Part shown: positions 243-34,502 of the stretch, piece after piece
How the letters are laid out: every line of letters begins with the position of its first letter
Numbering within the stretch: the stretch's first letter is position 1
DNA from: Candidatus Aenigmatarchaeota archaeon
Lineage (GTDB): Archaea; Aenigmatarchaeota; Aenigmatarchaeia; CG10238-14
Direction of reading: 5' to 3'
Length of the DNA: 34,502 nt
NCBI GenBank assembly: GCA_014728985.1
Contig: WJKS01000015.1
Location: forward strand, 1-34,502
Notes under the pieces: model-generated
Seen by the model: the letters and a program-made list of their open reading frames with translations, nothing else
Database searches by the model: none
Told to the model about the DNA's origin: nothing
Translations under genes and position numbers: made by a program

Positions 243-1829
243 ATGAAAACGAAGGTATTGTTAGGTGCAGTCTTTGGACTACTGTTAATGGCCAGTGCTT
301 TTGCACAAAATTCAGATTTTCAATTCAGTATCTCGCCAGAAGAATTATCGGTGAATCCTTATGAGATAGCTGTATATGATATACTAATAGAAAACCAAGG
401 TCAGGTAGACGAGGTTTATAGTATATCTATACAAGGTATACCAGAACTTTGGTATTCATTAAGTCATGAGGCAATTGAAGTTCCTTCTGGAGAGGAAAGA
501 GAAGTCTACTTATTTATTACACCCCAGCCTTCGGAAGAAGATGTTTATGTTGGGGAATTACTTGTTAATGGGATTTCTCAGACATTTCAATTAAATATAA
601 TCAAAGAGCATTCACTTCAGGTTTCAATGCCTAGTCAATTAACCTCATGTATATGTGAGCAGGATCAGACAATGATAGTTGTTCAGAATACAGGAAAATA
701 TGAGGAAAATATCGAACTGGTATTGTCTGGAGATGCATTAGAAATCATAGAAGTTGAAGCAGATATTTTTGTAGTCGAACCTAATGAATCCCTACAGATT
801 CCAGTTACAATCAAAGAAGCATGTGAAACTGAACAAAGAAACTACAATTTGGAAGTTAGAGTGGAATCAGTAAGTAGTTATGCGTCAGCATTTACTTTCT
901 CTACAGTCCAGAAAAAGGATTGCTTTGCTTTTGAGTTAAGTTATCCAGAGGAAGTCAGTACTTGTGCTAACGCAGAGCAATCGTTTAAGATATCTGTTAC
1001 AAATACCGGCATAAGGGAAGACAGTTATGAGATTGGTATCGAAGAATTAGGATATTCTGATATCATAGATCTAGAACCAGGACAAACACAGGAATTTGAG
1101 ATTACCTTTATGGAAGAAGAAGAGGGTATATATGGAATACCTTTCACTGTATCTTCAGATTCGGTTAGTAAAGATGGTCTGGTGAATTTTATAGTTGAGA
1201 GATGTTATGGTGTTGACCTTGAATTGGATACAGATGAGCTAACAATTGAATCAGGAAAAGGTAGACTGACAAACCCATCTGTAAAAAATACAGGAACAAG
1301 AGCTGATACATTCGGTATTACTTCAAGCGCAATTTGGATTGCTATAAGACCGTTGAACGTGACTTTGTTGCCAAATGAAACACAAGAAATCTTTGTTTAC
1401 TACAGTCCAGAATTTGGATCAGTCGGAGAGTTTGATGTTGAACTTTTGGTTGAATCCGAATATGCTCTTGACAGGGAAACAGTAACAGTAAATGTTGAAG
1501 GTGAAATTATAGAAACTACGACCTCAGTTCCTGAGGAAACAACAACTACAATTGAAGAAGCTACTACAACTGTGGAGATGAATATAACCACGCCTGAGGA
1601 AAACATTACAACTACAACAGAAGGCATAATAGAGCCACCAGAGATAAATATCACAAAACCAACAGGAGCTTTCACAAGAGTATGGAATAAAATACTGGAA
1701 TTTAGTGATAGTTTAAACGAAAGAGTAGAGGGATTAGGAATAAACAAAGTTCTATTATCAATAATAGTAGGATTTGTGATAGCTCTGATAATACTATTAG
1801 CACTTTACTTCATAGTTATGAGTGGTTAA
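243..1829 (+). CDS. Secreted, C-terminally anchored surface protein with four tandem ~100-aa Ig-like (CARDB/NEW3-like) repeats and a Thr-rich stalk
   Basis: N-terminal signal peptide (MKTKVLLGAVFGLLLMASAFA). Four repeats share an N(T/Q)G...E(I/V)(F/Y)... pattern. A Thr-rich linker carries NIT sequons. C-terminal TM segment LLSIIVGFVIALIILLALYFIV. Confidence 0.85.
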   Translation: MKTKVLLGAVFGLLLMASAFAQNSDFQFSISPEELSVNPYEIAVYDILIENQGQVDEVYSISIQGIPELWYSLSHEAIEVPSGEEREVYLFITPQPSEEDVYVGELLVNGISQTFQLNIIKEHSLQVSMPSQLTSCICEQDQTMIVVQNTGKYEENIELVLSGDALEIIEVEADIFVVEPNESLQIPVTIKEACETEQRNYNLEVRVESVSSYASAFTFSTVQKKDCFAFELSYPEEVSTCANAEQSFKISVTNTGIREDSYEIGIEELGYSDIIDLEPGQTQEFEITFMEEEEGIYGIPFTVSSDSVSKDGLVNFIVERCYGVDLELDTDELTIESGKGRLTNPSVKNTGTRADTFGITSSAIWIAIRPLNVTLLPNETQEIFVYYSPEFGSVGEFDVELLVESEYALDRETVTVNVEGEIIETTTSVPEETTTTIEEATTTVEMNITTPEENITTTTEGIIEPPEINITKPTGAFTRVWNKILEFSDSLNERVEGLGINKVLLSIIVGFVIALIILLALYFIVMSG

Positions 1830-1830
1830 A

Positions 1831-1989
1831 ATGATAGAGATAATCTTATTGATTGCAAGTTTTTTGGTACTTGGAGCTGTAGCTTTAGAAGCAAAGGTAA
1901 AATCAAATTTAGGAAAATTCATCGTTTTAACAGGTCTTCTAGTGGGGGTAGTTGACCTAATATATGTGATAGTTAAACTACTCCGGTGA
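1831..1989 (+). CDS. Possible 52-aa two-TM membrane mini-protein (below the ORF-track cutoff)
   Basis: ATG lies 1 nt after the upstream stop. Hand translation: MIEIILLIASFLVLGAVALEAKVKSNLGKFIVLTGLLVGVVDLIYVIVKLLR. Its stop overlaps the SD/start region of the next gene. Confidence 0.35.
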   Translation: MIEIILLIASFLVLGAVALEAKVKSNLGKFIVLTGLLVGVVDLIYVIVKLLR

Positions 1990-1997
1990 GGACAAAA

Positions 1998-2423
1998 ATG
2001 AAGACAAACAGTTTATTTGCATTTATTCTTACACTATTAGCTTTGGTAATGGTTATTGGATTATTCGGCTACATTGGTTACAGAGGTCTTTCTAAATATC
2101 TTTTGAGAAGACCACAATACTGTGAGCAGTTTTCCGTTGACTTAGAACCAGAAATGCATTCTGCGGAACTAGAGGTAGGAAAAGGGAAATTGATCAAGGT
2201 TAAAATTACTAATAAAGGCTTTGAAGACGAATTTAGAATAGGTTTCGAAGGCCCTGAATGGATTGCCACAAGACCTGTTAAAGTAAGGTTGGATCAAGGA
2301 GAAACCGAAGAAATATTTGTCTATATGAGTCCTGGTGTTGATTCTGAGGGTAGCTACACCTTGATGGTTTTCGTTGAAAGTTATTGTGGAAGAGAAGAGA
2401 CTGAAATTAGGGTTACTGTCTGA
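1998..2423 (+). CDS. N-terminally anchored protein with one surface-repeat domain, paralogous to repeat 4 of 243..1829
   Basis: TM helix near the N-terminus. PEWIATRPVKVRLDQGETEEIFVYMSPG matches SSAIWIAIRPLNVTLLPNETQEIFVYYSPE in the upstream protein. ATG at 1998 is preceded by GGTGAGG; the ORF track starts at GTG 1986. Confidence 0.7.
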   Translation: MKTNSLFAFILTLLALVMVIGLFGYIGYRGLSKYLLRRPQYCEQFSVDLEPEMHSAELEVGKGKLIKVKITNKGFEDEFRIGFEGPEWIATRPVKVRLDQGETEEIFVYMSPGVDSEGSYTLMVFVESYCGREETEIRVTV

Positions 2424-2464
2424 TTTATTGAAAACTTTATATATCTCTATTCTAACTACTGGTT

Positions 2465-3388
2465 ATGATTAACCCAAAATTAAAGCAATTACTGGAAAAA
2501 CAGGGTTACAGATTCTCAGGAAATCATAGCGTGGTTAAAACCTGTAGATGGACCAGGAATAGCCTACGTGGTAAAGGCGTTTGTTATAAAGAAAAGTGGT
2601 ATCCTCCTGTAAAGAGTCATAGGTGCATGCAGATGTCACCGTCATTATTTTGTAACCACAACTGCCTCTTCTGTTGGCGCTTACATTCAGGAGATAGGGG
2701 GGTTTCCTGGAAAGAATCTTTCAAAGGAATTAAGTTAGATGATCCCAGAGAAATTCTGGAAAAATCAATCGAGCAAAGAAAATTACTTTTACAGGGTTAT
2801 AAGGGATGGGAAGGAATAGATAAGAAAAAATGGAAAGAATCCTTGAAACCGAATATAATTGCAATAAGTCTTACTGGGGAACCGACTATGTATCCTAGGT
2901 TAGGAGAATTAATCCAGGAGGCACATAAGAAAAATATAATAACATTCCTTGTAACTAATGGAACTTTTCCTGAGAAATTGAAGACTTTAGAAGAGAACCC
3001 ATTCCAATTATATGTAACATTGGCCGCACCTAATAAGGAGGTCTATAAGAATCTTTGTAAACCATCCACACCAAAGCTCTGGGAAAAGTTGAATGAAACC
3101 CTAGAGTTGATGAATTCCTTTGATTGTAGAAAAGTCGTCAGGTTAACAATGGTTAAAGGCTTCAATATGACGAAACCAAAGGAATATGTAAAATTAATAG
3201 AGAAGATCAATCCTGATTTTATTGAGGCCAAAGGTTATGTTCATGTGGGAGAATCAAGGAAAAGATTGCCTCATGATGCTATGCCTTATCATGAGGATGT
3301 TAGAGATTTTTCAAAAGAATTAGAGAAGGCTTCATCTTTTGAAATCAAGGACGAATCTGAGCCTAGTAGGGTAGTTTTAATGACGTAA
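2465..3388 (+). CDS. taw1: tRNA 4-demethylwyosine synthase Taw1/TYW1 (radical SAM)
   Basis: Radical-SAM CNHNCLFCW (CxxxCxxC) motif. Overall TYW1-like layout: N-terminal LLEKQGYR..HSVVKTCRW and C-terminal FIEAKGYVHVGESR. Length typical of archaeal Taw1. Confidence 0.9.
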   Translation: MINPKLKQLLEKQGYRFSGNHSVVKTCRWTRNSLRGKGVCYKEKWYPPVKSHRCMQMSPSLFCNHNCLFCWRLHSGDRGVSWKESFKGIKLDDPREILEKSIEQRKLLLQGYKGWEGIDKKKWKESLKPNIIAISLTGEPTMYPRLGELIQEAHKKNIITFLVTNGTFPEKLKTLEENPFQLYVTLAAPNKEVYKNLCKPSTPKLWEKLNETLELMNSFDCRKVVRLTMVKGFNMTKPKEYVKLIEKINPDFIEAKGYVHVGESRKRLPHDAMPYHEDVRDFSKELEKASSFEIKDESEPSRVVLMT

Positions 3389-3456
3389 TAAGAATCGTTC
3401 GGTCCTCACCTAACATAATAGTAAGTAATTTTAAACCTAACTAACAATTAATTCTT

Positions 3457-3975
3457 ATGTCAAATGAAGATGAAGAAGTTTTAAAGGCCTTAGTTTCAGA
3501 TACAAGGAGAGATATAGTAAAAAGACTGTCAGACGGGGACAGGACACCTTCTGATCTAAGTAAAATGTTGGATAAAAGTAAATCCACGGTAGTAGAACAT
3601 TTGGACAAATTGATTAAGGCTGGTTTGGTAGAAAAAATCGAGAGACCCGGTAGAAAATGGGTTTTCTACTCATTAACGAGAAAAGGAGAATCATATGTTT
3701 CCCAGAAATCAAAGAAATTAATTATAATTCTATCATCAGTGTTTATCTCATTGTTAGGAGGAGTATTTTCATTGTTCAAACATATGTCTGTAACACCCCA
3801 AAAAGCTAACGTGGAAAGACAATTGATGGAAGCAGTCACTGAAGGAGCAGCCATGGATGCTATGACTTCTAGTACACCTTGGTTTCTTTATCTGTCAATA
3901 GGTTTGTTTAGCTTGTCTTTAATTGGAATATTTGTTATAATATTAATGAAGAGAAAGAGGATGGTTGAAATATGA
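3457..3975 (+). CDS. Membrane-tethered ArsR-family winged-HTH regulator (N-terminal HTH, two C-terminal TM helices)
   Basis: ArsR-like DTRRDIVKRLSDGDRTPSDLSKMLDKSKSTVVEHLDKLIKAGLVEK...FYSLTRKG. TM segments LIIILSSVFISLLGGVFSLF and WFLYLSIGLFSLSLIGIFVIILM. TATA-like element about 25 nt upstream of the ATG. Confidence 0.8.
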   Translation: MSNEDEEVLKALVSDTRRDIVKRLSDGDRTPSDLSKMLDKSKSTVVEHLDKLIKAGLVEKIERPGRKWVFYSLTRKGESYVSQKSKKLIIILSSVFISLLGGVFSLFKHMSVTPQKANVERQLMEAVTEGAAMDAMTSSTPWFLYLSIGLFSLSLIGIFVIILMKRKRMVEI

Positions 3976-4265
3976 GGGAATTAATAGTTTTTTCGTCGAT
4001 ACTTTTGCCAGTAATTGTTCTTAGCGGATGTACCCAAGAAGTGGCTGTAGATAAGTTCTATTGTGAGAGCGACAACGATTGTGTACATTTACCTTCAGCT
4101 TGTCATCAAGGTTCAAATTTATGTGTTAATGGAGTTTATGCTTCTAAAATAGATTTACCCGATGGACCTATTGCATGTACCGAGGAATGCAGGTCATGTA
4201 CGGAATGTTTCTGTGAAAATAACGTGTGTAAAACAATAACTTCAGATCCTCCAGGTTGCTGTTAA
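3972..4265 (+). CDS. Small Cys-rich exported protein, probable lipoprotein (LSGC lipobox)
   Basis: ATGA overlap with the upstream stop. Signal peptide ends in LSGC. 13 Cys in 97 aa. Shares FYC(E/D)xDxDCV and C(E/I)NNxCxxI motifs with the 8768..9082 product. Confidence 0.65.
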   Translation: MRELIVFSSILLPVIVLSGCTQEVAVDKFYCESDNDCVHLPSACHQGSNLCVNGVYASKIDLPDGPIACTEECRSCTECFCENNVCKTITSDPPGCC

Positions 4266-4481
4266 ATGAGAATAAAACTAATAATTTTCATTATAATAAT
4301 TTTGTTACCAGTTTCATTTTTAATTATTTTCAATGACTCTAGATGGGAATACATTGATTGCTTAAATGAATGTAATAAGGGAAATAATGTACCTAGGGAA
4401 TTATGTAATTACCCTATGGTCCAGAAGTTAATTGATCATGGTAAGTGTTGGTGGAGTGATATGACACCTTTGCCCGATTAA
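4266..4481 (+). CDS. Small membrane-anchored or exported 4-Cys protein
   Basis: ATG immediately follows the upstream TAA. Strongly hydrophobic N-terminus (LIIFIIIILLPVSFLIIF), then a Cys-containing soluble part. No recognisable family. Confidence 0.45.
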   Translation: MRIKLIIFIIIILLPVSFLIIFNDSRWEYIDCLNECNKGNNVPRELCNYPMVQKLIDHGKCWWSDMTPLPD

Positions 4482-4999
4482 TTTGTTTTAATTTCCTTGC
4501 CCTTTCTTTTAGGAACTATCCTAACTTTACCACCGAATTTCTTATTAATTTCATTTCCTTGAAAATATCTATCAAGAAATACAGCAAGAGCAGCTATTTC
4601 GCTATGAGGTTGATTTCCTACAGCCACTTGAATATCACAAAAATCATAAACGTCTCCGGGTACCTTCTGACTACCAATAATTACAAGTAAATTGCTCTTA
4701 CCCCTTATTTCACCAATAGCTTCAGGAAGATTGATACCATACATTGTCAGGTAAACCACGAAATATCCCTTGTTTTTGAAGTTTTTAACCAATTTTCCCC
4801 AGTTTTTTTCGTATTTGACCTTGAAATTCCCTCCCCATTTATCCACGATCCTTTCAACTGATTCTATCAAGCCCTTATCCCTCTGTCCCGAGAAAATTAT
4901 CCCATCGGCTCCCAGGGCCCTTGAAACTAGGCCACAATGTGTAGAAACCCTTTCATCTCTAGGTAACCTGTGTCCTAAGCGCAATATCCAGACAGACAT
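4478..4999 (-). CDS. trm56: tRNA (cytidine56-2'-O)-methyltransferase aTrm56 (SPOUT)
   Basis: N-terminal LRLGHRLPRDERVSTHCGLVSRALGADGI and C-terminal QPHSEIAALAVFLDR are characteristic of archaeal aTrm56. Length 173 aa. Confidence 0.85.
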   Translation of the reverse strand: MSVWILRLGHRLPRDERVSTHCGLVSRALGADGIIFSGQRDKGLIESVERIVDKWGGNFKVKYEKNWGKLVKNFKNKGYFVVYLTMYGINLPEAIGEIRGKSNLLVIIGSQKVPGDVYDFCDIQVAVGNQPHSEIAALAVFLDRYFQGNEINKKFGGKVRIVPKRKGKEIKTN

Positions 5000-5023
5000 A
5001 CCATTATTTTAAATCCCAAACAG

Positions 5024-5031
5024 TTATAAAT
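5024..5031. promoter_or_regulatory. Candidate shared TATA element (TTATAAAT) in the 53-bp divergent aTrm56/aIF1A intergenic region
   Basis: Near-palindromic TATA core. Its centre lies about 28 nt from the aTrm56 ATG (4999) and 25-28 nt from the aIF1A TTG/GTG (5053/5056), the archaeal TATA-to-start spacing expected for leaderless mRNAs. Confidence 0.4.
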
Positions 5032-5052
5032 CTACCAACCTAAGCATTACTA

Positions 5053-5379
5053 TTGGTGATAATTATAGCAAGAAAAAGACCAGAAATATCTGAAGAAGAA
5101 GAGATTAGGAGAATAAGAAGACCTGAAGAAGGACAAGTTTATGCGGTAGTTGAGCAAATGCTGGGCTCAGATAAATTAAGAGTACAGTGTGAGGACGGAA
5201 AAGAGAGAATAGCAAGAATCCCAGGGAGAATGAGAAAAAGAATATGGATCAGAGTAGGAGATTTAATTTTAGTTGATCCATGGAAAGTCCAGAGTGATAG
5301 CCGCTGTGATGTTGCTTGGAGATATAGCCCTACACAGGCGAGATGGATAAGAAGGAAAGGAATCCTAAAAAACATTTAG
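5053..5379 (+). CDS. eif1a: Translation initiation factor aIF-1A
   Basis: S1/OB-fold core RRPEEGQVYAVVEQMLGSDKLRVQCEDGKERIARIPGRMRKRIWIRVGDLILVDPW is typical of aIF1A. Only TTG (5053) or GTG (5056) can start the gene without cutting conserved sequence. Confidence 0.9.
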   Translation: MVIIIARKRPEISEEEEIRRIRRPEEGQVYAVVEQMLGSDKLRVQCEDGKERIARIPGRMRKRIWIRVGDLILVDPWKVQSDSRCDVAWRYSPTQARWIRRKGILKNI

Positions 5380-5750
5380 GATTTCCATAAACCATGGATG
5401 TTACAATATTCCCTTACTTCTATATTTTCTGGACTAATTTCAAATTCTACTTCCGGTTTTTGTCCAGGTTTTAAGAATTTTCTGCAACTGTTACCGTCTA
5501 CTAATACTTCGACCCATTCTATGTAATGTTCTTCTTCCATTGGGTGTGGTGTTGAACCCACTTTAACTTTGAATCCTTTATCTGTTTTTTCAACTACTGG
5601 AACGTGTTTCTCAAGCCCTTTGTCCTCCGTTTTTTCTTCTAGTAATTCCATAGGTTGAGCACAACATACAAGTTGAGCCGGTCCTTTGTGTATAACCTGA
5701 ACCATGTTTCCGCAAATATTACATTTGTAAATACCTAGTAATTCTGTCAT
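5376..5750 (-). CDS. dfx: Desulfoferrodoxin (2Fe superoxide reductase)
   Basis: N-terminal desulforedoxin-like CNICGN...CC motif, plus a C-terminal neelaredoxin/SOR domain (KHVPV...HPMEEEHYIEW...CNIHGLW). AGGTGA SD lies 4 nt before the ATG. Confidence 0.9.
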   Translation of the reverse strand: MTELLGIYKCNICGNMVQVIHKGPAQLVCCAQPMELLEEKTEDKGLEKHVPVVEKTDKGFKVKVGSTPHPMEEEHYIEWVEVLVDGNSCRKFLKPGQKPEVEFEISPENIEVREYCNIHGLWKS

Positions 5751-5758
5751 CTAATCAC

Positions 5759-6253
5759 CTAGGTACATTCGCATGTGCCCATATCTTCTGCTAAAGCTTC
5801 CAGATCTTCTTCATGTTCTACTTCATCCTCAAGTATTTGTAAGAACATTTTATGTGATATTGGGTCTTTACCTTCTGTCATTTTGACTAGTTCCTGATAG
5901 ACCTTAATCGCACATTGTTCACCTTTTATATTCTGTTCAAGTATTTTCTTTACTTCAGGATCTTCTGGGCTCTCATATCCACAGTTGGTCATTTTATACC
6001 AATTTTCTGGTTTTATTATTGGAGTTCCACCCAGTTGTATTATTCTATCAACTAGCATATTTGCATGATCTAATTCCTCGTTCGCATGTTCTACTAACTC
6101 AGCTTCCACCGCTCCCCTCATTGGTCCCACTAAGACTTTAGATCCAATCCAGTATTGGTAATAAGCTAACCATTCATCAGCAAGAGCCTTGTTCATTTCT
6201 TCCACTAGCTTTTCCACATCTAATCCTACTATTTTTCTACCTATCGTTCCCAT
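5759..6253 (-). CDS. Dps-like (DPSL)/bacterioferritin-like ferritin-superfamily protein
   Basis: Four-helix-bundle di-iron signature: ADEWLAYYQYW, EHANEELDHANMLVDRIIQLGGTP, ILEDEVEHEEDL. GAGGTG SD upstream. Confidence 0.8.
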   Translation of the reverse strand: MGTIGRKIVGLDVEKLVEEMNKALADEWLAYYQYWIGSKVLVGPMRGAVEAELVEHANEELDHANMLVDRIIQLGGTPIIKPENWYKMTNCGYESPEDPEVKKILEQNIKGEQCAIKVYQELVKMTEGKDPISHKMFLQILEDEVEHEEDLEALAEDMGTCECT

Positions 6254-6286
6254 TTATTTACACCTCATTCATTTGATTAACATTAT

Positions 6287-6550
6287 TTAGTTATTATTTT
6301 TCAACTTCTCAAATTTAACAGTAGCACCCTTTTCAATCTCTTTTATTTTACCAATTTTAGTTTTTAGATTGTTATCTTCCAGTAAAATTTTCAAATCATC
6401 GAAATAATCATAGAATCCGCAAGTTCTACAAAAGGCTCCTGTAAATCTGACTTTGAAATCATTTTTTTTATTCGAAACTAATTCTGCAGTTGCCACTGGG
6501 GATCTTAATTCATTAAATTCTTTAATTATCTTCTCAATATCATTTCCCAT
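6287..6550 (-). CDS. Conserved-position hypothetical protein (87 aa, CxxC) inside the oxidative-stress operon
   Basis: ORF track begins at 6589. The internal ATG at 6550 is preceded by TAGGTGATTTA: the rubrerythrin TAG stop sits inside an AGGTGA SD placed 4 nt before the ATG. Contains FCRTCGFYDYF. Confidence 0.6.
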   Translation of the reverse strand: MGNDIEKIIKEFNELRSPVATAELVSNKKNDFKVRFTGAFCRTCGFYDYFDDLKILLEDNNLKTKIGKIKEIEKGATVKFEKLKNNN

Positions 6551-6558
6551 TAAATCAC

Positions 6559-6954
6559 CTAATCCAAAGACTCCAACAATTTCTGACATGATTTCAAATG
6601 TCTTGACTCAGCTTTACCAACCCTTTCAACCCATTTGGCTATGTCTTCATGTCCCTCTTCTCTAGCTTCTTTAACAATTTTTGGATACATGTTTTCAGTT
6701 TCATCCATTTCCTTCTCTATCGATATTTTCAAAGCATCTTTTACACCATTGACTTTAACCGAACCTAGTTTTGATAAATAAAATAAAAATCCCTTGGCGT
6801 GACATTCTTCACCTTTAGCAATGCTTCTAAACATATCCGAAACTTCTGGATAACCCAATTCATCGGCCATTTCCGAGAAGAAAATATATCTTAAATTAGC
6901 TTGACATTCTTTAACAAAAGCTTTTTTTAAATTCTCTTCAGTTTTTTTACTCAT
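6559..6954 (-). CDS. Rubrerythrin-family di-iron protein lacking the rubredoxin domain (sulerythrin-like)
   Basis: Two ExxH ligand motifs (GEECHAKG, KAESRHLK) in a ferritin-like four-helix layout. ATG at 6954 is preceded by GAGGTGA; the ORF-track TTG at 6960 is less likely. Confidence 0.85.
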   Translation of the reverse strand: MSKKTEENLKKAFVKECQANLRYIFFSEMADELGYPEVSDMFRSIAKGEECHAKGFLFYLSKLGSVKVNGVKDALKISIEKEMDETENMYPKIVKEAREEGHEDIAKWVERVGKAESRHLKSCQKLLESLD

Positions 6955-6975
6955 TAGCAATTTTCACCTCTTGAT

Positions 6976-7125
6976 TTAATCCATATCCATTCTTGGGTGC
7001 ATTCCAACTATATTTTCTATTCCTACTGCATCCCCATAAGCGACTCTAGATGGCTCAGATTCATACCGTTGATTTAGTCTCTCAAAATCTCTTTCATCTG
7101 ATTCAATTGACCACCTGTACTCCAT
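6976..7125 (-). CDS. Possible 49-aa acidic mini-protein between the peroxiredoxin and rubrerythrin genes
   Basis: Hand translation: MEYRWSIESDERDFERLNQRYESEPSRVAYGDAVGIENIVGMHPRMDMD. It exactly fills the otherwise empty 175-bp gap within the operon. Only a weak SD (AGG). Confidence 0.3.
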   Translation of the reverse strand: MEYRWSIESDERDFERLNQRYESEPSRVAYGDAVGIENIVGMHPRMDMD

Positions 7126-7136
7126 ATCAACCGCCT

Positions 7137-7811
7137 TTACATTTTCTTATGACATAACCACCAATCATAACATTCTATCTCACCGGATTTTTCCTGTTTC
7201 CTTCTTTCCTTTATTGTTTCTTCGTCTTTTGCTGGGGGTACAATCACTCTGTCCTTTATCAATTCGTTCTCAGGCCAATTAGCTGGTGTAGCAACTTTAT
7301 CACCGTCAACTGTTTGCAATGCCTTAACTATTCTCAGAACTTCATCCATATTTCTACCCGCTTCCTGAGGATAATATAATATAGTTCTAATGACCCCTCT
7401 CGGATCTATCACAAAGACCGCCCTAACTGTATTAGTTCCCTTACTTGGATGTACCATCCCGAACAAACTAGCAACCTTACCCATATCATCTGCAATTATC
7501 GGGAATTCTATTTTTACCTTCAATTTTTCATTTATCCATTCAGTCCATTTCATATGACTAAATACCTGGTCTATGCTAAGTCCGATTAATTCTGTGTTCA
7601 TTTTCTTGAATTTTTCATATCTTTTCTGAAAGGACACAAATTCTGTTGTACAGACGGGTGTAAAATCCGCCGGATGTGAGAATAGCACAACCCATTTACC
7701 TTTGTAATCATTTGGAAAGTTTATCATACCTTGAGTGGTTTGTATCTTAAATGATGGTGCCTTATCGCCTATTAACGGAAAATTTATTTTTTCTTGTTCC
7801 ATTTCATTCAC
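7137..7811 (-). CDS. Peroxiredoxin (Prx6/1-Cys type, AhpC/TSA family)
   Basis: Active-site FTPVCTTE motif and typical [15 protein letters not shown] context. 224 aa. GAGGTGA SD upstream; the second ATG (7802) may be the true start. Confidence 0.92.
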
Positions 7812-9274: not shown

Positions 9275-10089
9275 ATGAATGTTCCTGATAAATTGGAAAC
9301 CCTCTATATGGAGATGAGAATCAGGAATTATTCTAGTAAAACTATAAAAAGCTACATAAAAAACAATCAAAAATTCCTTGAATTCATTCAAAAACCATCA
9401 ACTAAAGTTAATTCCAGCGACATCAAAAAATACATAAAACATCTAATAGACGAAGGAAAAAGCCCATCAAATATAAGACAGGTGATAGCTTCTCTCAGAT
9501 TCTATCACTCAGAAGTTCTTCATAGAAAATTCTTCAAAAATATCAAAAATCCAAAAATATCCAGAAAATTACCCATAGTTCTAAGTAAAAAAAGAAGTAA
9601 AAAGAATGATAGAAGTTACAGGCAATTCAAAACACAGACTAATAATCCAAATTATTTATGGGTGTGGTTTAAGGCTTTCAGAGGTAGTTAACTTGAAAAT
9701 ATCAGATAGATGTTGATAGAAGAATGTTAACAGTAAGGTCAGGTAAAGGAAAGAAAGATAGGCAAATACCGATTCCAAAATCACTAATAAATATCTTAAA
9801 ATGTTCATTTTCAAGGAGAAAGTATCTGTTCGAGGGGAGGAAAGGACATCTTTCTCAGAGATCTGTATACAAGATAGTAAAAAAAGCAGCAAAAAAAGCA
9901 AGAATAAGAAAAAATGTTTCTCCTCATACTCTTAGACATAGCTTTGCAACCCATTTATTAGAGTCAGTGACTAATCTAAGATATATCCAAAAACTCCTCG
10001 GACATTCAAAACTTCAAACAACACAAATCTATACAAAAGTATCTAAGTCTTCACTTGAAAAAATAAAGAGCCCACTAGATAGTTTATAG
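9275..10089 (+). pseudogene. XerA/XerC-like tyrosine recombinase interrupted by two +1 frameshifts
   Basis: N-terminal SAM-like domain in frame 1 (9275..~9590). KEVKRMIEVTGNSKHRLIIQIIYGCGLRLSEVVNLK is readable in frame 2. The catalytic part (HTLRHSFATHLL...LLGHSKLQTTQIYT) is in frame 3. Shifts sit at A-runs 9587..9593 and 9696..9699. Summed length is about 271 aa. Confidence 0.8.
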
Positions 10090-17160: not shown

Positions 17161-17337
17161 ATGCCTGTCCCGGGAATCTGTAAAAGTTGTAGAAAAATCA
17201 GTTACACTCTCTTTATATGTACTTATTGTGGATCTAAGGTTTGTCATGTTTGCTTGGAGACTAGAAAAACACCGTGTAAATTATGTAAAAAAGAAGAGGA
17301 ACCCGACGAATTCACTGTTTTCCTAAATAGGTCTTAA
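17161..17337 (+). CDS. 58-aa double zinc-ribbon mini-protein (below the ORF-track cutoff)
   Basis: Hand translation: MPVPGICKSCRKISYTLFICTYCGSKVCHVCLETRKTPCKLCKKEEEPDEFTVFLNRS. Four CxxC pairs. Its 3' end overlaps the convergent gene by 26 nt. Confidence 0.45.
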   Translation: MPVPGICKSCRKISYTLFICTYCGSKVCHVCLETRKTPCKLCKKEEEPDEFTVFLNRS

Positions 17338-19969: not shown

Positions 19970-20191
19970 TCTACATACTTTTATAATGTCTCTTCACTAC
20001 TTGAGGATGCTCTAGATAAGTTTTAAATAGTTTTTTGATCTAAAATTCCTTGATAACTATGTCAGACGATGATTGGGATTTTGAAGTTGATGATTGGGAC
20101 GAAAACCCAGAATTAGACGAGGAATGGTAATTTAGAACAAGTTTAAAATGTCCAAAAGCGGCTATTTATTGGAAGTGAGGTTTCTGAAAAT

Positions 20192-20422
20192 TTAACCAAA
20201 CATGGCGGAGAATCCGCTAATAACATCCTCTTCCTTTTTTTCTTGTATTTCAGGTTCGGGGTAATAATATTTCGGTTTTTCATATTTAGTCTCTGGACAT
20301 TTATGACACACCCATTTACCATATTTTTTTCGGATACATTTAGGACAACCAATAGTTTCACAATTGTTACATTCAATTAGTTCATCAGTTTTACTTTTGC
20401 AATTTGGGCAAAACAATTCCAT
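20192..20422 (-). CDS. Double zinc-ribbon protein (76 aa) with a ribosomal-stalk-like C-terminal tail
   Basis: MELFCPNC...CNNC...CPKC...CHKC, then an acidic linker ending EKKEEDVISGFSAMFG-stop. ATG at 20422 preferred over the ORF-track TTG at 20473. Confidence 0.6.
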   Translation of the reverse strand: MELFCPNCKSKTDELIECNNCETIGCPKCIRKKYGKWVCHKCPETKYEKPKYYYPEPEIQEKKEEDVISGFSAMFG

Positions 20423-23175: not shown

Positions 23176-23469
23176 TTATCCAAAAATGCCCCCGAATCCC
23201 TGCATTGCTTGATCTTCCTCTTCCTCGATTTTCTTTAATACTTTTTCTTTTGTTTCTTTATCTACTTTTTCTCCTAAATCTTTCATTAAATCTTCTGATT
23301 TTTCACAGTTTTCTTCTGTCCCTGAAATATAAACATAGTATTTATCTTCAAATCCAATTGTTTCTCCGTCTTTGAATTTTATACTAGATCTCCCTACTAG
23401 ATCATCATTAAAAAGGACATCTTTAACCTTCTGAAAGTCTGACTTTTCTATCTCATATACTAATTTCAA
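23176..23469 (-). CDS. Small acidic protein (97 aa) with a ribosomal-stalk-like C-terminal tail
   Basis: Beta-rich N-terminal domain and a Lys/Glu linker ending KKIEEEEDQAMQGFGGIFG-stop. The stop lies 7 nt upstream of the 5' end of tRNA-Gly on the same strand. Confidence 0.65.
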   Translation of the reverse strand: MKLVYEIEKSDFQKVKDVLFNDDLVGRSSIKFKDGETIGFEDKYYVYISGTEENCEKSEDLMKDLGEKVDKETKEKVLKKIEEEEDQAMQGFGGIFG

Positions 23470-23945: not shown

Positions 23946-24953
23946 ATGGAAGAAGCCTTATTATGGAATAGTGAATCTGGAAAAGCTAGATGTGAACTCT
24001 GCGCTTGGAGATGTCTAATTCCTTCGGGTAAAGCGGGTCTCTGTGGCGTTCGAGTAAATGAAAAAGGTAGACTTTATTCCAAAAATTTTGGGAAAATAAT
24101 TCAGATGGATGAACAACCTATTGAAAAAGCACCCATGTTTCATTTTTATCCTGGTTCCGAGTCTCTCTTCTTAGCATCTTTTGGTTGTAATATGAGATGT
24201 CAATTCTGTATAAATGCTGATATGAGTCAAAAGGTTGGTGCTAAAGTTAAGAAAAAAACACCTGAAGATATAATAAAATATCTCAATGAGAAAAGAATAA
24301 AATTGATTGTTTTCACTTACACAGAACCCACGGTTAATTTTGAATTTGCTTTTAAGGTTGCTAGGCTCGCTAAGAGATATAATATAAAGACTGTTTTCGT
24401 CACAAATGGCTATATGACTTCTGATGCAATCAAAAAAATCGGAAAATATTTGGACGCAGTTTCAGTCGATATAAAAGCCTCTGGGGACCCTGAATTTTAT
24501 AAAAAATATATGGGCATTGAAGACGTAGTTCCTATATTTGATGCTTTAAAAAACTTCAGAAAACATAGGGTTTTTATAGAAGTTTCAAATTTAATTGTTC
24601 CTGAAATCGGTGGTAGTAAAGAACTGAATAGAGAATTCCTGTATTGGATAATAAACAATCTTGATTCCAGTATACCTTATCATCTCAGGGGATTTATACC
24701 GTCTTATAAAATGCAGGATACCCTCCCTACATCCTTGGATAAATTAGAGGACTTTGCATCAGATGCAAGGGAAATAGGATTGAGATATATCTATATTGAT
24801 GGTCAGTTAGGTTTTGGGAGAAATAATAATACTTATTGTTACAACTGTGGTGAACTTGTAGTTGAAAGAACTGCTTCTACCGTTAAGAAATTGAACTTAA
24901 TTGGGGACAGATGTCCTAAATGTGGTTTCAAGATAGATGTAGTTATAGAATAA
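23946..24953 (+). CDS. AmmeMemoRadiSam-system-type radical SAM enzyme (PflA-like activase family)
   Basis: N-terminal CELCAWRC...GLCGVRVNEKGRLY, radical-SAM CNMRCQFC cluster motif, and C-terminal Cys pairs CYNCG...CPKCG. Confidence 0.85.
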   Translation: MEEALLWNSESGKARCELCAWRCLIPSGKAGLCGVRVNEKGRLYSKNFGKIIQMDEQPIEKAPMFHFYPGSESLFLASFGCNMRCQFCINADMSQKVGAKVKKKTPEDIIKYLNEKRIKLIVFTYTEPTVNFEFAFKVARLAKRYNIKTVFVTNGYMTSDAIKKIGKYLDAVSVDIKASGDPEFYKKYMGIEDVVPIFDALKNFRKHRVFIEVSNLIVPEIGGSKELNREFLYWIINNLDSSIPYHLRGFIPSYKMQDTLPTSLDKLEDFASDAREIGLRYIYIDGQLGFGRNNNTYCYNCGELVVERTASTVKKLNLIGDRCPKCGFKIDVVIE

Positions 24954-33661: not shown

Positions 33662-34502
33662 TCAAGTAATGCCCTGTTCTAATATCCTTCTGAAGGTTAT
33701 TCTTACCTTTCTTACTGTTATTGTCTTCTCTCCAAGAATATGATTTTCTACATTCAGTAATATCCAGAAATTGTATAGTACCACTGATACCAGTATGAAC
33801 AACAATCTAACCGTAAAGCTGGTTGAACAAGTCTTGGCACGGAATTCTTTTTTGACTCTGTAACCAGTCTCTATTCCCCATCTTTGTGGATATGTTCTAG
33901 CTACCCAGTCTGGTTCTACATCCATGTTTGTGAAGAACCCAACCAAATCACCATCCTCTGTCGGATAAATCAGTAATCTGACATCAATGTAGTTCCTGTT
34001 GCATTGTAATCTGTAGATGGTCTTCCATACATTCTTTTTAGCACATTCATCCATTATACTCATTATTTTCGCTGTTTTCTTTACTGGTGTTATCCAATTC
34101 TTCTTTCTTTTGTTGAATAGTTTGTAAACATCTATTGACTGGAATCCTCTATCCATAAGTACACAATCTATCCTTACCAATCCTTTTATGTGGTTCAGAA
34201 GGTCTTTTATCACTTTTCTCTTTGATTTGAATGTATTCATTGGAATTATGGATAAAGTGAATCTTCTTCCTCTTTCAACTATGTCAATTGAGATTATCTT
34301 GAGAAACTTATTTGTTCCAGACTTAGGTTTTCCTCTTGTGATGAATAAATCATCGTCTTTTCCATAATAAGGGATATCATGAAAATCTATTGCTAATTTA
34401 GCTTTTCCTGTTATCCTGTACATTCTTCTCACATCAAGGTAATTTTTTCTTATCATTTCCTGGAATATTTCAAGGATATCCTTCCAATTGAGTTTCTTTA
34501 TA
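33662..34502 (-). mobile_element. IS4-superfamily (ISH3-like) DDE transposase gene, 5'-truncated by the window edge
   Basis: DDE/YREK signature: AIDFHDIPYYG, CVLMDRGF, YPQRWGIETGYRVKKE. The reading frame stays open upstream of the ATG at 34456 to position 34502. IS ends cannot be defined from one side. Confidence 0.85.

Follow-up and report, generated by a model that had tools for sequence, protein, structure and literature searches.

The C-terminal peptide of the ribosomal stalk is the handle that recruits translational GTPases and ABCE1 to archaeal and eukaryotic ribosomes, and ricin and similar toxins exploit the same handle. In the archaeal stalk proteins aP1 and P0 (PF00428; PDB 3WY9 for the complex with aEF1A), this peptide consists of an acidic run followed by h-x-G-h-S-A-h-F-G (h, hydrophobic residue) at the end of a disordered linker. 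The L103S, L106S and F107S substitutions in aP1 abolish the binding of aEF1A and L100S weakens it, the carboxylate of G108 forms a salt bridge to K324 of aEF1A, and L103, L106 and F107 serve the binding of aEF2 as well (PMC4267659). Two further reports describe binding of the aP1 tail by several factors, ABCE1 and aEF2 among them, and aEF1A, aEF2, aIF5B and ABCE1 are all users of this tail (PMC6125642, PMC5887453). Here we have analyzed a 34,502-nucleotide stretch of a Candidatus Aenigmatarchaeota archaeon (assembly GCA_014728985.1, contig WJKS01000015.1, positions 1 to 34,502; hereafter the window) that contains a gene, ZnTail76, whose 76-residue product appears to carry a tail of the stalk type behind an eight-cysteine finger. 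About 3 kb away, a second gene, Fd97, encodes a protein of unrelated fold with a similar tail.

The last 13 residues of ZnTail76 (EEDVISGFSAMFG) were compared with the C-terminus of Pyrococcus aP1 (EEALAGLSALFG). Residues I68, F71, M74, F75 and G76 of ZnTail76 align on L100, L103, L106, F107 and G108 of aP1; G70, S72 and A73 are identical to G102, S104 and A105; and E64, E65 and D66 fall on E96, E97 and E98. The comparison of ISGFSAMFG with LAGLSALFG that had been drawn previously from the letters alone (the sequence-only reading) was therefore correct, with all the binding positions of aP1 matched. ZnTail76 contains the features that define a stalk-type motif, i.e. hydrophobic residues at the L103, L106 and F107 positions, a C-terminal carboxylate, preceding acidic residues and a flexible linker of variable length before the tail, and its Phe at the L103 position recurs in GFGLFD, the stalk tail of eukaryotes. 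When scored without gaps (BLOSUM62) against 16 aP1 tails, the 13 residues gave 43 at best, and the highest score among 300,000 composition-matched random 13-mers was 34. Because the random peptides never reached 43, the resemblance to aP1 is real. Among 244 open reading frames (ORFs) of at least 80 residues from the window and the related loci, only a true aP1 (score 62) and members of the two tail-bearing families scored above 15, and a six-frame scan of the window revealed two ORFs ending in a stalk-like peptide, those of ZnTail76 and Fd97.

The tail is the most conserved part of ZnTail76 besides the metal ligands. F71, M74 and F75 are invariant in close homologues, F75 is kept throughout the family, and 16 of 18 close homologues end in Gly. 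The tail is found without exception in the close homologues and in most of the distant ones, down to about 32% identity (e.g. ESALAAMFG, GLFSMFG and IFSSMFG). The linker, in contrast, ranges from 7 to 33 residues across the family and its sequence is poorly kept, the K-Y-Y-Y-P stretch being shared only among close relatives; in the AlphaFold2 (AF2) model its predicted local distance difference test score (pLDDT) was about 42-64 (below 50 for residues 53-68), and that of the tail was about 55. In the DNA of seven genomes, the codons of the tail vary synonymously (TTC/TTT, GGT/GGC/GGA, GCA/GCT/GCC and TCC/TCT/TCG/TCA) with F, M, F and G fixed, and the position of the stop is unchanged. The selection on the peptide that the sequence-only reading had proposed is thus supported by a tail that is kept while the linker drifts and by synonymous changes at its invariant positions; the comparison of orthologues that it had suggested as a check gave the same picture, finger and tail being retained while the linker varies.

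The ZnTail76 gene begins with an ATG at 20422..20420 and stops with a TAA at 20194..20192 on the minus strand (Table 1), and its translation (MELFCPNCKSKTDELIECNNCETIGCPKCIRKKYGKWVCHKCPETKYEKPKYYYPEPEIQEKKEEDVISGFSAMFG) contains all the features previously claimed for it, namely the four CxxC pairs, the linker of Pro, Tyr and Glu and, after an acidic run, ISGFSAMFG. Homologues were found in 17 clusters of 52-89% identity, and a word-index-free profile search of 1.84 billion representative proteins yielded 25 representatives of the family, nearly all of 39-89 residues. The family comes from metagenomes only: six GTDB genomes carry homologues, two of them labelled Candidatus Aenigmarchaeota/Aenigmatarchaeota, besides many metagenome contigs, and ten further metagenome loci were retrieved with a narrower family alignment. 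Conservation extends over genomes of 30-52% guanine-plus-cytosine (GC) content. Upstream of the ATG there is a TATA-box-like element (Table 1), with an equivalent A/T box at the same distance in five related loci (L001, L002, L003, L006 and L007), which fits an archaeal promoter with a short leader or none. Taken together, these comparisons indicate that the ZnTail76 gene is real and under purifying selection in both finger and tail. A longer, TTG-initiated ORF of 93 residues was ruled out because the conserved TATA box falls within the extension and the homologues begin at the ATG. Two overlapping ORFs, 20143..20376 (-) and 20243..20380 (+), were also discarded; they appear in the six-frame list only, and the conservation is seen in the ZnTail76 frame.

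The finger of ZnTail76 has the spacing C-x2-C-x9-C-x2-C-x4-C-x2-C-x9-C-x2-C, with 38 residues from the first to the last Cys. None of the four CxxC pairs varies among 22 family members, which extend down to 32% identity. Every sequence of the broad alignment has the eight Cys, E14 and the penultimate Phe, and P6, G25, K32 and W37 are nearly invariant (W37 in at least 90%). Because His40 is not conserved across the family, the ligand set of ZnTail76 is Cys8; the metal of these predicted sites may be zinc. The finger is basic (isoelectric point, pI, 8.5) and the linker plus tail acidic (pI 4.7). With the family alignment, AF2 modelled residues 1-43 with a pLDDT of 89-95.

The description of this domain in the sequence-only reading as a double zinc ribbon is doubtful, since profile and fold searches lean to cross-brace fingers of the PHD/FYVE type. 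When the finger model was compared with the PDB by Foldseek, the best matches were PHD/FYVE/Rim2 fingers at sub-significant E values of 0.05-0.5 (0.048 for the TAF3 PHD), and a PDB profile search returned, also below significance, the PHD fingers of TRIM66 (E = 0.017) and PHF21A (E 0.017-0.037 for the group). The Pfam PHD model (PF00628) was matched below threshold by 17 of 18 members, with a best E value of 0.064 and about 10 bits against a cutoff of 24. Zn_ribbon_6 (PF07191) was reached only at E values of 0.78 or more, in 9 of 18 members, and DZR (PF12773) was not matched; rubredoxins appeared only at E values of about 2 in the PDB profile search and gave no Pfam match; and the ribosomal proteins eL42 and eS27 remained below threshold (E = 0.35-3.5). 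Weak as their matches are, the three independent searches (Foldseek, PDB profiles and Pfam) agree on fingers of the PHD type. The spacing and the E-L-x-x-C-[DN]-x-C and W-x-C-x-x-C signatures, too, are better suited to a compact cross-brace of this type, with Cys throughout, than to two tandem ribbons. ZnTail76 shares with PHD/FYVE/RING cross-brace fingers the eight ligands, the E-L-x-x-C-[DN]-x-C signature and a Trp at position -2 from the seventh ligand. It differs from PHD fingers, which are C4HC3, in having Cys instead of His as the fifth ligand, much shorter loops and an archaeal host; all matches are below significance, and the cross-brace pairing of its ligands is putative.

Other small archaeal proteins offer a partial parallel. 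Among the C(P)XCG micro-proteins of Haloferax, not every predicted finger binds zinc (PMC11241148), and the metal of ZnTail76 is for this reason putative. HVO_2753 and HVO_0758 of this group, like ZnTail76, have fewer than 80 residues and CxxC knuckles, four such motifs in the case of HVO_2753 (PMC11241148, PMC10716476), although they have no detectable homology to ZnTail76 and a stalk-like tail is not reported in them. The window itself contains a further finger protein of the same eight-Cys type, Zn58, of 58 residues, in which the Cys are spaced C-x2-C-x9-C-x2-C-x4-C-x2-C-x7-C-x2-C and the last of them is followed by acidic residues. Zn58 lacks the conserved tail, its orthologues in L001, L002 and L003 ending differently, and so provides a natural control for the tail; its match to the ZnTail76 finger family in hhalign was weak (pairwise E = 7e-4, probability 26%).

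The second tail-bearing protein, Fd97, has 11 homologues in which QAMQGFGGIFG is invariant to near-invariant. Its tail places M, F, I, F and G on L100, L103, L106, F107 and G108 of aP1, E, D and Q on E96, E97 and E98, and G at each of G102, S104 and A105, and its BLOSUM62 score is likewise 43. AF2 predicted, with a pLDDT of 87, a beta-alpha-beta-beta-alpha-beta domain and behind it a helix of residues 71-93 that leads into the tail, and Foldseek found in the PDB generic PII/PstA-like ferredoxin folds only (E about 0.01). The presence of stalk-like tails on two different folds, claimed by the sequence-only reading, is hence supported by the AF2 models of an eight-Cys finger and a ferredoxin-like alpha/beta domain. 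Its further statement that both bear the same tail needs correction: the tails are similar but not identical and each is specific to its family, A[FL][SA][SA]MFG in the finger family and [AG][FV]GGIF[GD] in that of Fd97, versions that are kept in distant lineages. By comparison, true aP1 tails are near-invariant, [AL]AGL[GS]ALFG, among 120 listed of the 7,962 aP1 sequences found with the Pyrococcus aP1 query; ISGFSAMFG keeps the pattern and spacing of this consensus but not its exact residues. The listed sequences include some labelled Thaumarchaeota and Thermoplasmatales, the ending of the crenarchaeon Hyperthermus shifts to GLESLFGF, and one listed aP1, labelled Aenigmarchaeota and from a metagenome-assembled genome (MAG) different from those that carry finger genes, ends in EEAAAGLGALFG.

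Neither of the two proteins is the aP1 of this lineage. The tail of aP1 is attached to a helical dimerisation domain, and those of ZnTail76 and Fd97 to an eight-Cys finger and a ferredoxin-like domain; in addition, the two families differ from aP1 in having M or I for L106 and F for L103 as fixed residues. ZnTail76 lacks the N-terminal four-helix dimerisation domain of aP1 (MEY[IV]YAALLLH...), its AF2 model being a Cys8 finger, and it did not match PF00428 or the NCBIfam P1 model (TIGR03685) even at E values up to 10. No ribosomal genes were found in the window or in any related locus, and true L1-P0-P1 operons were found in L008, L027 and L030. With no dimerisation domain, no place in the stalk operon and no Pfam signature of aP1, ZnTail76 is best described as a carrier of the aP1 C-terminal motif, yet not an aP1. 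Fd97 was rejected as a divergent aP1 because it has no PF00428 match, its N-terminus is not helical (its fold being alpha/beta) and it lies outside a stalk operon.

In agreement with the lack of any described family with such an architecture, as stated previously, none was found in Pfam, NCBIfam, the PDB or the searched literature; Pfam and NCBIfam scans of ZnTail76, Fd97 and cc169, a neighbouring gene product considered below, gave nothing above threshold at default or relaxed cut-offs, and PDB profile searches and Foldseek comparisons yielded sub-significant matches only. Our literature searches revealed no archaeal protein outside the stalk to which a stalk-like tail is ascribed, no cellular non-stalk protein bearing the stalk peptide and nothing on stalk proteins in Aenigmarchaeota. 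What appears to be new is therefore a known docking peptide placed on new scaffolds, in an undescribed and lineage-restricted family, because the literature searches returned no non-stalk archaeal proteins with such tails.

The interpretation that we tentatively favor, while giving it somewhat less than an even chance, is that the tail of ZnTail76 is a stalk-type docking peptide on a flexible leash that hooks the finger to aEF1A, aEF2, aIF5B or ABCE1. On this view, ZnTail76 is a real, expressed small protein in which a finger is joined, through a flexible linker that is acidic and rich in Pro and Tyr, to a short linear motif at the C-terminus. The tail would fold into a short amphipathic helix, and I68, F71, M74 and F75, together with the carboxylate of G76, would enter the hydrophobic grooves of aEF1A, aEF2, aIF5B or ABCE1 that bind aP1. 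In this way a translation factor would come to carry the finger together with its cargo or, as an alternative outcome, ZnTail76 would compete with the stalk for these factors. Fd97 may act likewise with a different cargo domain, and both proteins would act within a conserved cluster that comprises cc169, a small membrane protein, AMMECR1 and the AmmeMemoRadiSam radical S-adenosylmethionine (SAM) enzyme. We infer both the binding of ZnTail76 to translation factors and the cargo of the finger. Docking of this type is favored because the binding residues of aP1, the acidic context and the free terminal Gly are reproduced, because an unrelated scaffold in the same cluster bears a similar peptide, and because the tail is the best-conserved part of the protein beyond the metal ligands. 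Moreover, since aP1 tails bind several factors, a portable peptide of this kind is plausible as a general handle.

The gene neighborhood, whose conservation the sequence-only reading had proposed to check, proved to be a cluster bounded by the AmmeMemoRadiSam radical SAM and AMMECR1 genes. In close relatives the order is the divergent radical SAM gene, a 66-residue ORF, a tRNA, Fd97, cc169, in some of them a major facilitator superfamily (MFS) transporter, the finger gene and convergent genes. In distant contigs of Aenigmarchaeota type (30-52% GC), the outer flanks change and a core block persists, with the radical SAM gene, Fd97 and cc169 followed, after intervening genes, by TM92 in the opposite orientation, an optional Flavin_Reduct gene, the finger gene and convergent AMMECR1. 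The finger and Fd97 genes are still linked in relatives at 35-45% identity; of the 10 loci whose upstream sequence reaches far enough, 8 have Fd97 upstream of the finger gene and in the same orientation, each time followed by cc169, and the radical SAM gene adjoins Fd97 in L001, L003, L007, L015 and L016. cc169 has a conserved MxLF(G)KKK N-terminus (MGLFKKKK in the window), a disordered, charged middle and a strongly conserved, coiled-coil-like C-terminal half (APLF[VI]K[IL]DRY...); neither Pfam nor the PDB contains a relative, and across lineages cc169 is the steadiest neighbor of the finger and flavin reductase genes.

Neighborhood counts were made on 19 distinct loci with a stalk-like tail. 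AMMECR1, which is AmmeMemoRadiSam protein A (TIGR04335, 173 bits; e.g. L007 4541..5134 (-)), is convergent with the finger gene and at most 0.5 kb from its 3' end in 13 of them, including a contig of 52% GC, and within 2 kb in two more. Flavin_Reduct (PF01613, 104 bits) lies 3-12 nucleotides upstream of the finger gene in 5 of the 19 loci, and the Flavin_Reduct-finger operon occurs in L014, L015, L016, L019, L021, L024, L025 and L026. The last three loci harbor a sister finger subfamily (L024 1253..1993, L025 2..361 and L026 7467..8213), with Flavin_Reduct directly upstream in all of them, whose tails differ and end in FPxWF (RFPKWFS and GFPNWF, preceded by N and S, respectively). This subfamily keeps a cc169 homologue beside the operon, and AMMECR1, Fd97 and the radical SAM gene were not seen in the flanks at hand; downstream of the finger gene in L024 there are a 104-residue protein and a class I tRNA synthetase (PF00579). 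In the contig of ZnTail76 itself, AMMECR1, TM92 and flavin reductase are all absent within the 34.5 kb and the tail is intact; the window genome has lost these three genes from the cluster site. A Memo-type gene was not seen in the retrieved flanks of the cluster loci (the L015 block spans 363..7336). As a separate observation, insertions split the cluster without removing its members, namely a LAGLIDADG-like endonuclease ORF between cc169 and TM92 in L015 (2742..3512 (+)) and the MFS transporter in the window lineage. Literature searches found no function for the AmmeMemoRadiSam system and no experimental knowledge of it.

Several of these observations weigh against docking of ZnTail76 to translation factors. 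AMMECR1, the radical SAM enzyme, flavin reductase and cc169 are not translation factors, and the FPxWF tails of the sister subfamily, which is encoded in a Flavin_Reduct operon, suggest that the tail may follow the local set of partners. A hidden Markov model (HMM) of aP1 tails gave ZnTail76 an E value of only 0.17, and its relatives worse ones, although this HMM was built mostly from Thermococcales tails and is too narrow, for which reason BLOSUM scoring against a random background was used instead. Finally, the L106 position is Met in nearly all members of the finger family and Ile in Fd97, and the L103 position is usually Phe; such family-specific fixation could mean a different partner.

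The AMMECR1, radical SAM and flavin reductase context thus opens a serious rival explanation, that the tail docks to a partner encoded in the cluster. The finger would be a rubredoxin- or Dph3-like metal carrier (possibly of iron) with a redox role, possibly the delivery of electrons to the radical SAM cluster; the tails would dock to AMMECR1, the radical SAM enzyme or cc169; and the likeness to the stalk would be convergent, aP1 and these tails both being an amphipathic, hydrophobic C-terminus after an acidic run. We consider this explanation rather unlikely, yet one to be reckoned with. The finger gene is the second gene of the Flavin_Reduct operon at eight loci, with gaps of 3-12 nucleotides, and there is a precedent in Dph3, a small Cys4 protein that is reduced by Cbr1 and serves the radical SAM enzyme Dph1-Dph2 (PMC8251694). 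The convergent AMMECR1 gene near the 3' end of the finger gene in 13 of 19 loci, the radical SAM enzyme flanking Fd97 and the lack of conservation of the flanks beyond the core block in distant loci point in the same direction, and so do the different tail of the sister subfamily, in whose flanks no AMMECR1 was seen, and the family-specific tails themselves, which, with Met or Ile fixed at the L106 position, are not aP1-like in detail. Nevertheless, the window genome keeps the tail with no AMMECR1 or flavin reductase within 34.5 kb, the convergent arrangement of the finger and AMMECR1 genes means that they are not co-transcribed, and lineage is confounded with gene context. In addition, it is PHD/FYVE, not rubredoxin, that appears in the fold and profile matches, the searched literature reports no peptide binding for AMMECR1 or for the radical SAM enzyme, and a generic hydrophobic tail would not need to follow aP1 so closely, residue by residue, down to the terminal Gly and the acidic run.

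An improbable explanation is that ZnTail76 is an accessory stalk element, whose basic finger would bind rRNA or a ribosomal protein near the GTPase-associated centre and add tails to a reduced DPANN stalk; the tail would still bind factors, the protein being ribosome-bound instead of a free adaptor or competitor. Three L1-P0-P1 operons of DPANN type, one of them labelled Aenigmarchaeota, encode a short P0 of 278-281 residues (L008 763..1599, L027 681..1517 and L030 3133..3978) that appears to have two spine helices only and has no acidic linker or stalk tail (...QSLKSKVGI), and the aP1 encoded beside it has a canonical AGLGALFG ending. These operons imply a reduced stalk with fewer factor-binding tails, since a tail-less P0 would leave fewer tails per ribosome than in Pyrococcus; they come, however, from MAGs other than those carrying finger genes. 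The basic finger (pI 8.5), with K32 and W37 conserved, is consistent with such a role, and many small archaeal ribosomal proteins are Cys4 zinc proteins. On the other hand, the ZnTail76 gene lies outside ribosomal operons, the family is narrow (25 representatives among 1.84 billion proteins), and the similarity to eL42 and eS27 remains at E = 0.35-3.5, with no ribosomal protein above threshold.

A highly improbable reading would join docking on translation factors with a redox role. The eukaryotic CSL-type protein Dph3/Kti11 is likewise small, binds its metal through Cys and has an acidic C-terminal region, and it works with the flavoprotein Cbr1 and the radical SAM enzyme Dph1-Dph2, the latter of which acts on eEF2, a translation GTPase (PMC8251694). 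The parallel here lies in the radical SAM enzyme that the cluster encodes and in a flavin reductase whose gene is, in many lineages, co-transcribed with that of the finger. Yet Dph3 has four Cys against eight and no detected sequence or fold similarity to ZnTail76, and the radical SAM enzyme of the cluster is of the pyruvate formate-lyase (PFL)-activase-like AmmeMemoRadiSam type, not Dph2, which makes Dph3 an analogy only. By this logic, ZnTail76 would be an iron electron carrier charged by flavin reductase and parked through its tail on aEF2 or aEF1A, possibly with bound tRNA, where AMMECR1 and the radical SAM enzyme would modify the translation apparatus, and Fd97 and cc169 would be further tail-guided subunits. 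If true, this would provide a first function for AMMECR1, Memo and the radical SAM enzyme and would make the stalk peptide a portable address label of non-ribosomal proteins.

It is very improbable that the tail is a degenerate form of the PCNA-interacting PIP box (Qxx[LIM]xx[FY][FY]) or an HbYX motif of the kind that docks to the proteasome. In its spacing, F(-5)..M(-2)F(-1), the tail does resemble the h-x-x-a-a of PIP boxes, two members (P0014 and P0015) have Gln at position 1 (QSAFASMF), and MFG at the extreme C-terminus is formally hydrophobic-aromatic-X. The PIP box fails, however, on its defining Gln, which is found in only two of about 45 sequences, the others having S, T, A, N, I or E, and Fd97 M; besides, PIP boxes usually have basic, not acidic, flanks. 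HbYX fails on its defining Tyr, the penultimate residue being Phe, never Tyr, in all tail-bearing members, and replication or proteasome genes are absent from the conserved neighborhood. A glycyl-radical substrate motif was also rejected, there being no RVxG[FY]-type context and the terminal Gly alone being conserved in the finger family. Lastly, the chance that the ORF is non-functional or its resemblance accidental is practically negligible: although it is short, unannotated and from an AT-rich genome where short ORFs are common, this explanation is refuted by conservation at 30-52% GC with eight invariant Cys and synonymous tail codons, together with a conserved promoter box, a confident AF2 fold and a score unmatched by 300,000 random peptides.

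Table 1. Location of ZnTail76, Fd97, their neighbors and other features in the window
Feature	Coordinates	Strand	Evidence or remark
ZnTail76 coding sequence (76-residue tail-bearing eight-Cys finger protein)	20192..20422, stop included	-	ORF and translation, homologues
Eight-Cys finger, putatively two-metal, residues 1-43	20294..20422	-	Invariant Cys, AF2
Pro/Tyr/Glu-rich linker, residues 44-63, with locally conserved K-Y-Y-Y-P	20234..20293	-	AF2, alignment
Acidic run and stalk-like terminal peptide EEDVISGFSAMFG, residues 64-76	20195..20233	-	aP1 alignment
TATA-box-like element TTTATAAA	20448..20455	-	26-33 nucleotides upstream of the ZnTail76 ATG
Fd97 coding sequence, 97 residues, ferredoxin-like domain, long helix and tail	23176..23469	-	ORF, AF2
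Fd97 residues 82-97, acidic run and tail EEEEDQAMQGFGGIFG	23179..23226	-	aP1 alignment
cc169, 169 residues	22510..23019	-	Constant neighbor of both tail genes
AmmeMemoRadiSam radical SAM enzyme, divergent from Fd97	23946..24953	+	TIGR04337, 224.5 bits against a cutoff of 220
Zn58	17161..17337	+
RNA polymerase subunit P-like zinc-ribbon protein, 47 residues	19634..19777	+	NCBIfam E = 7e-4, far below cutoff
Acidic mini-ORF MSDDDWDFEVDDWDENPELDEEW	20061..20129	+
Oxidative stress genes	5376..7811	-
Phage-type integrase fragment	9275..9691	+	N-terminal SAM-like domain only
DDE transposase	33662..34456	-	Near contig end

The window also encodes topoisomerase VI, aTrm56, RIO kinase, Taw2/Trm5 and TYW1-like enzymes and is archaeal. 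In all close relatives, the gene of a Cys4 zinc-ribbon protein that weakly resembles subunit P of RNA polymerase (RpoP) adjoins that of FKBP26, near the finger gene. Between the side of this RpoP-like gene and the finger gene there is a tiny, very acidic ORF of 22-33 residues that contains Trp and recurs in L002 (9309..9410 (-)), L003 (8221..8307 (-)), L006 (1658..1810 (-)) and L007 (5174..5263 (-)) with similar endings (...NPELDEDW, ...LELDEDW and ...EEEWEWEDDDI). Its conserved position and composition suggest that it is a real micro-protein or an acidic docking peptide. Elsewhere in the window, genes for a desulfoferrodoxin, a ferritin/rubrerythrin-like protein and a 1-Cys peroxiredoxin, related to oxidative stress, stand beside that of an Lrp/AsnC regulator, and the integrase fragment and the transposase are signs of mobile-element activity.

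The linkage of the tail-bearing proteins to flavin reductase and to AMMECR1 and the radical SAM enzyme, which are widespread and have human homologues, provides concrete candidate partners for a system to which no function has been assigned. If the tail binds a protein encoded in the cluster, the resemblance to the stalk would represent the convergent evolution of one peptide solution and a caution for motif-based inference. On the favored docking to translation factors, the occurrence of two unrelated small proteins with stalk-like tails in one lineage suggests that the stalk peptide is usable as a portable address label, which could bring other activities to the translation factors or titrate them.

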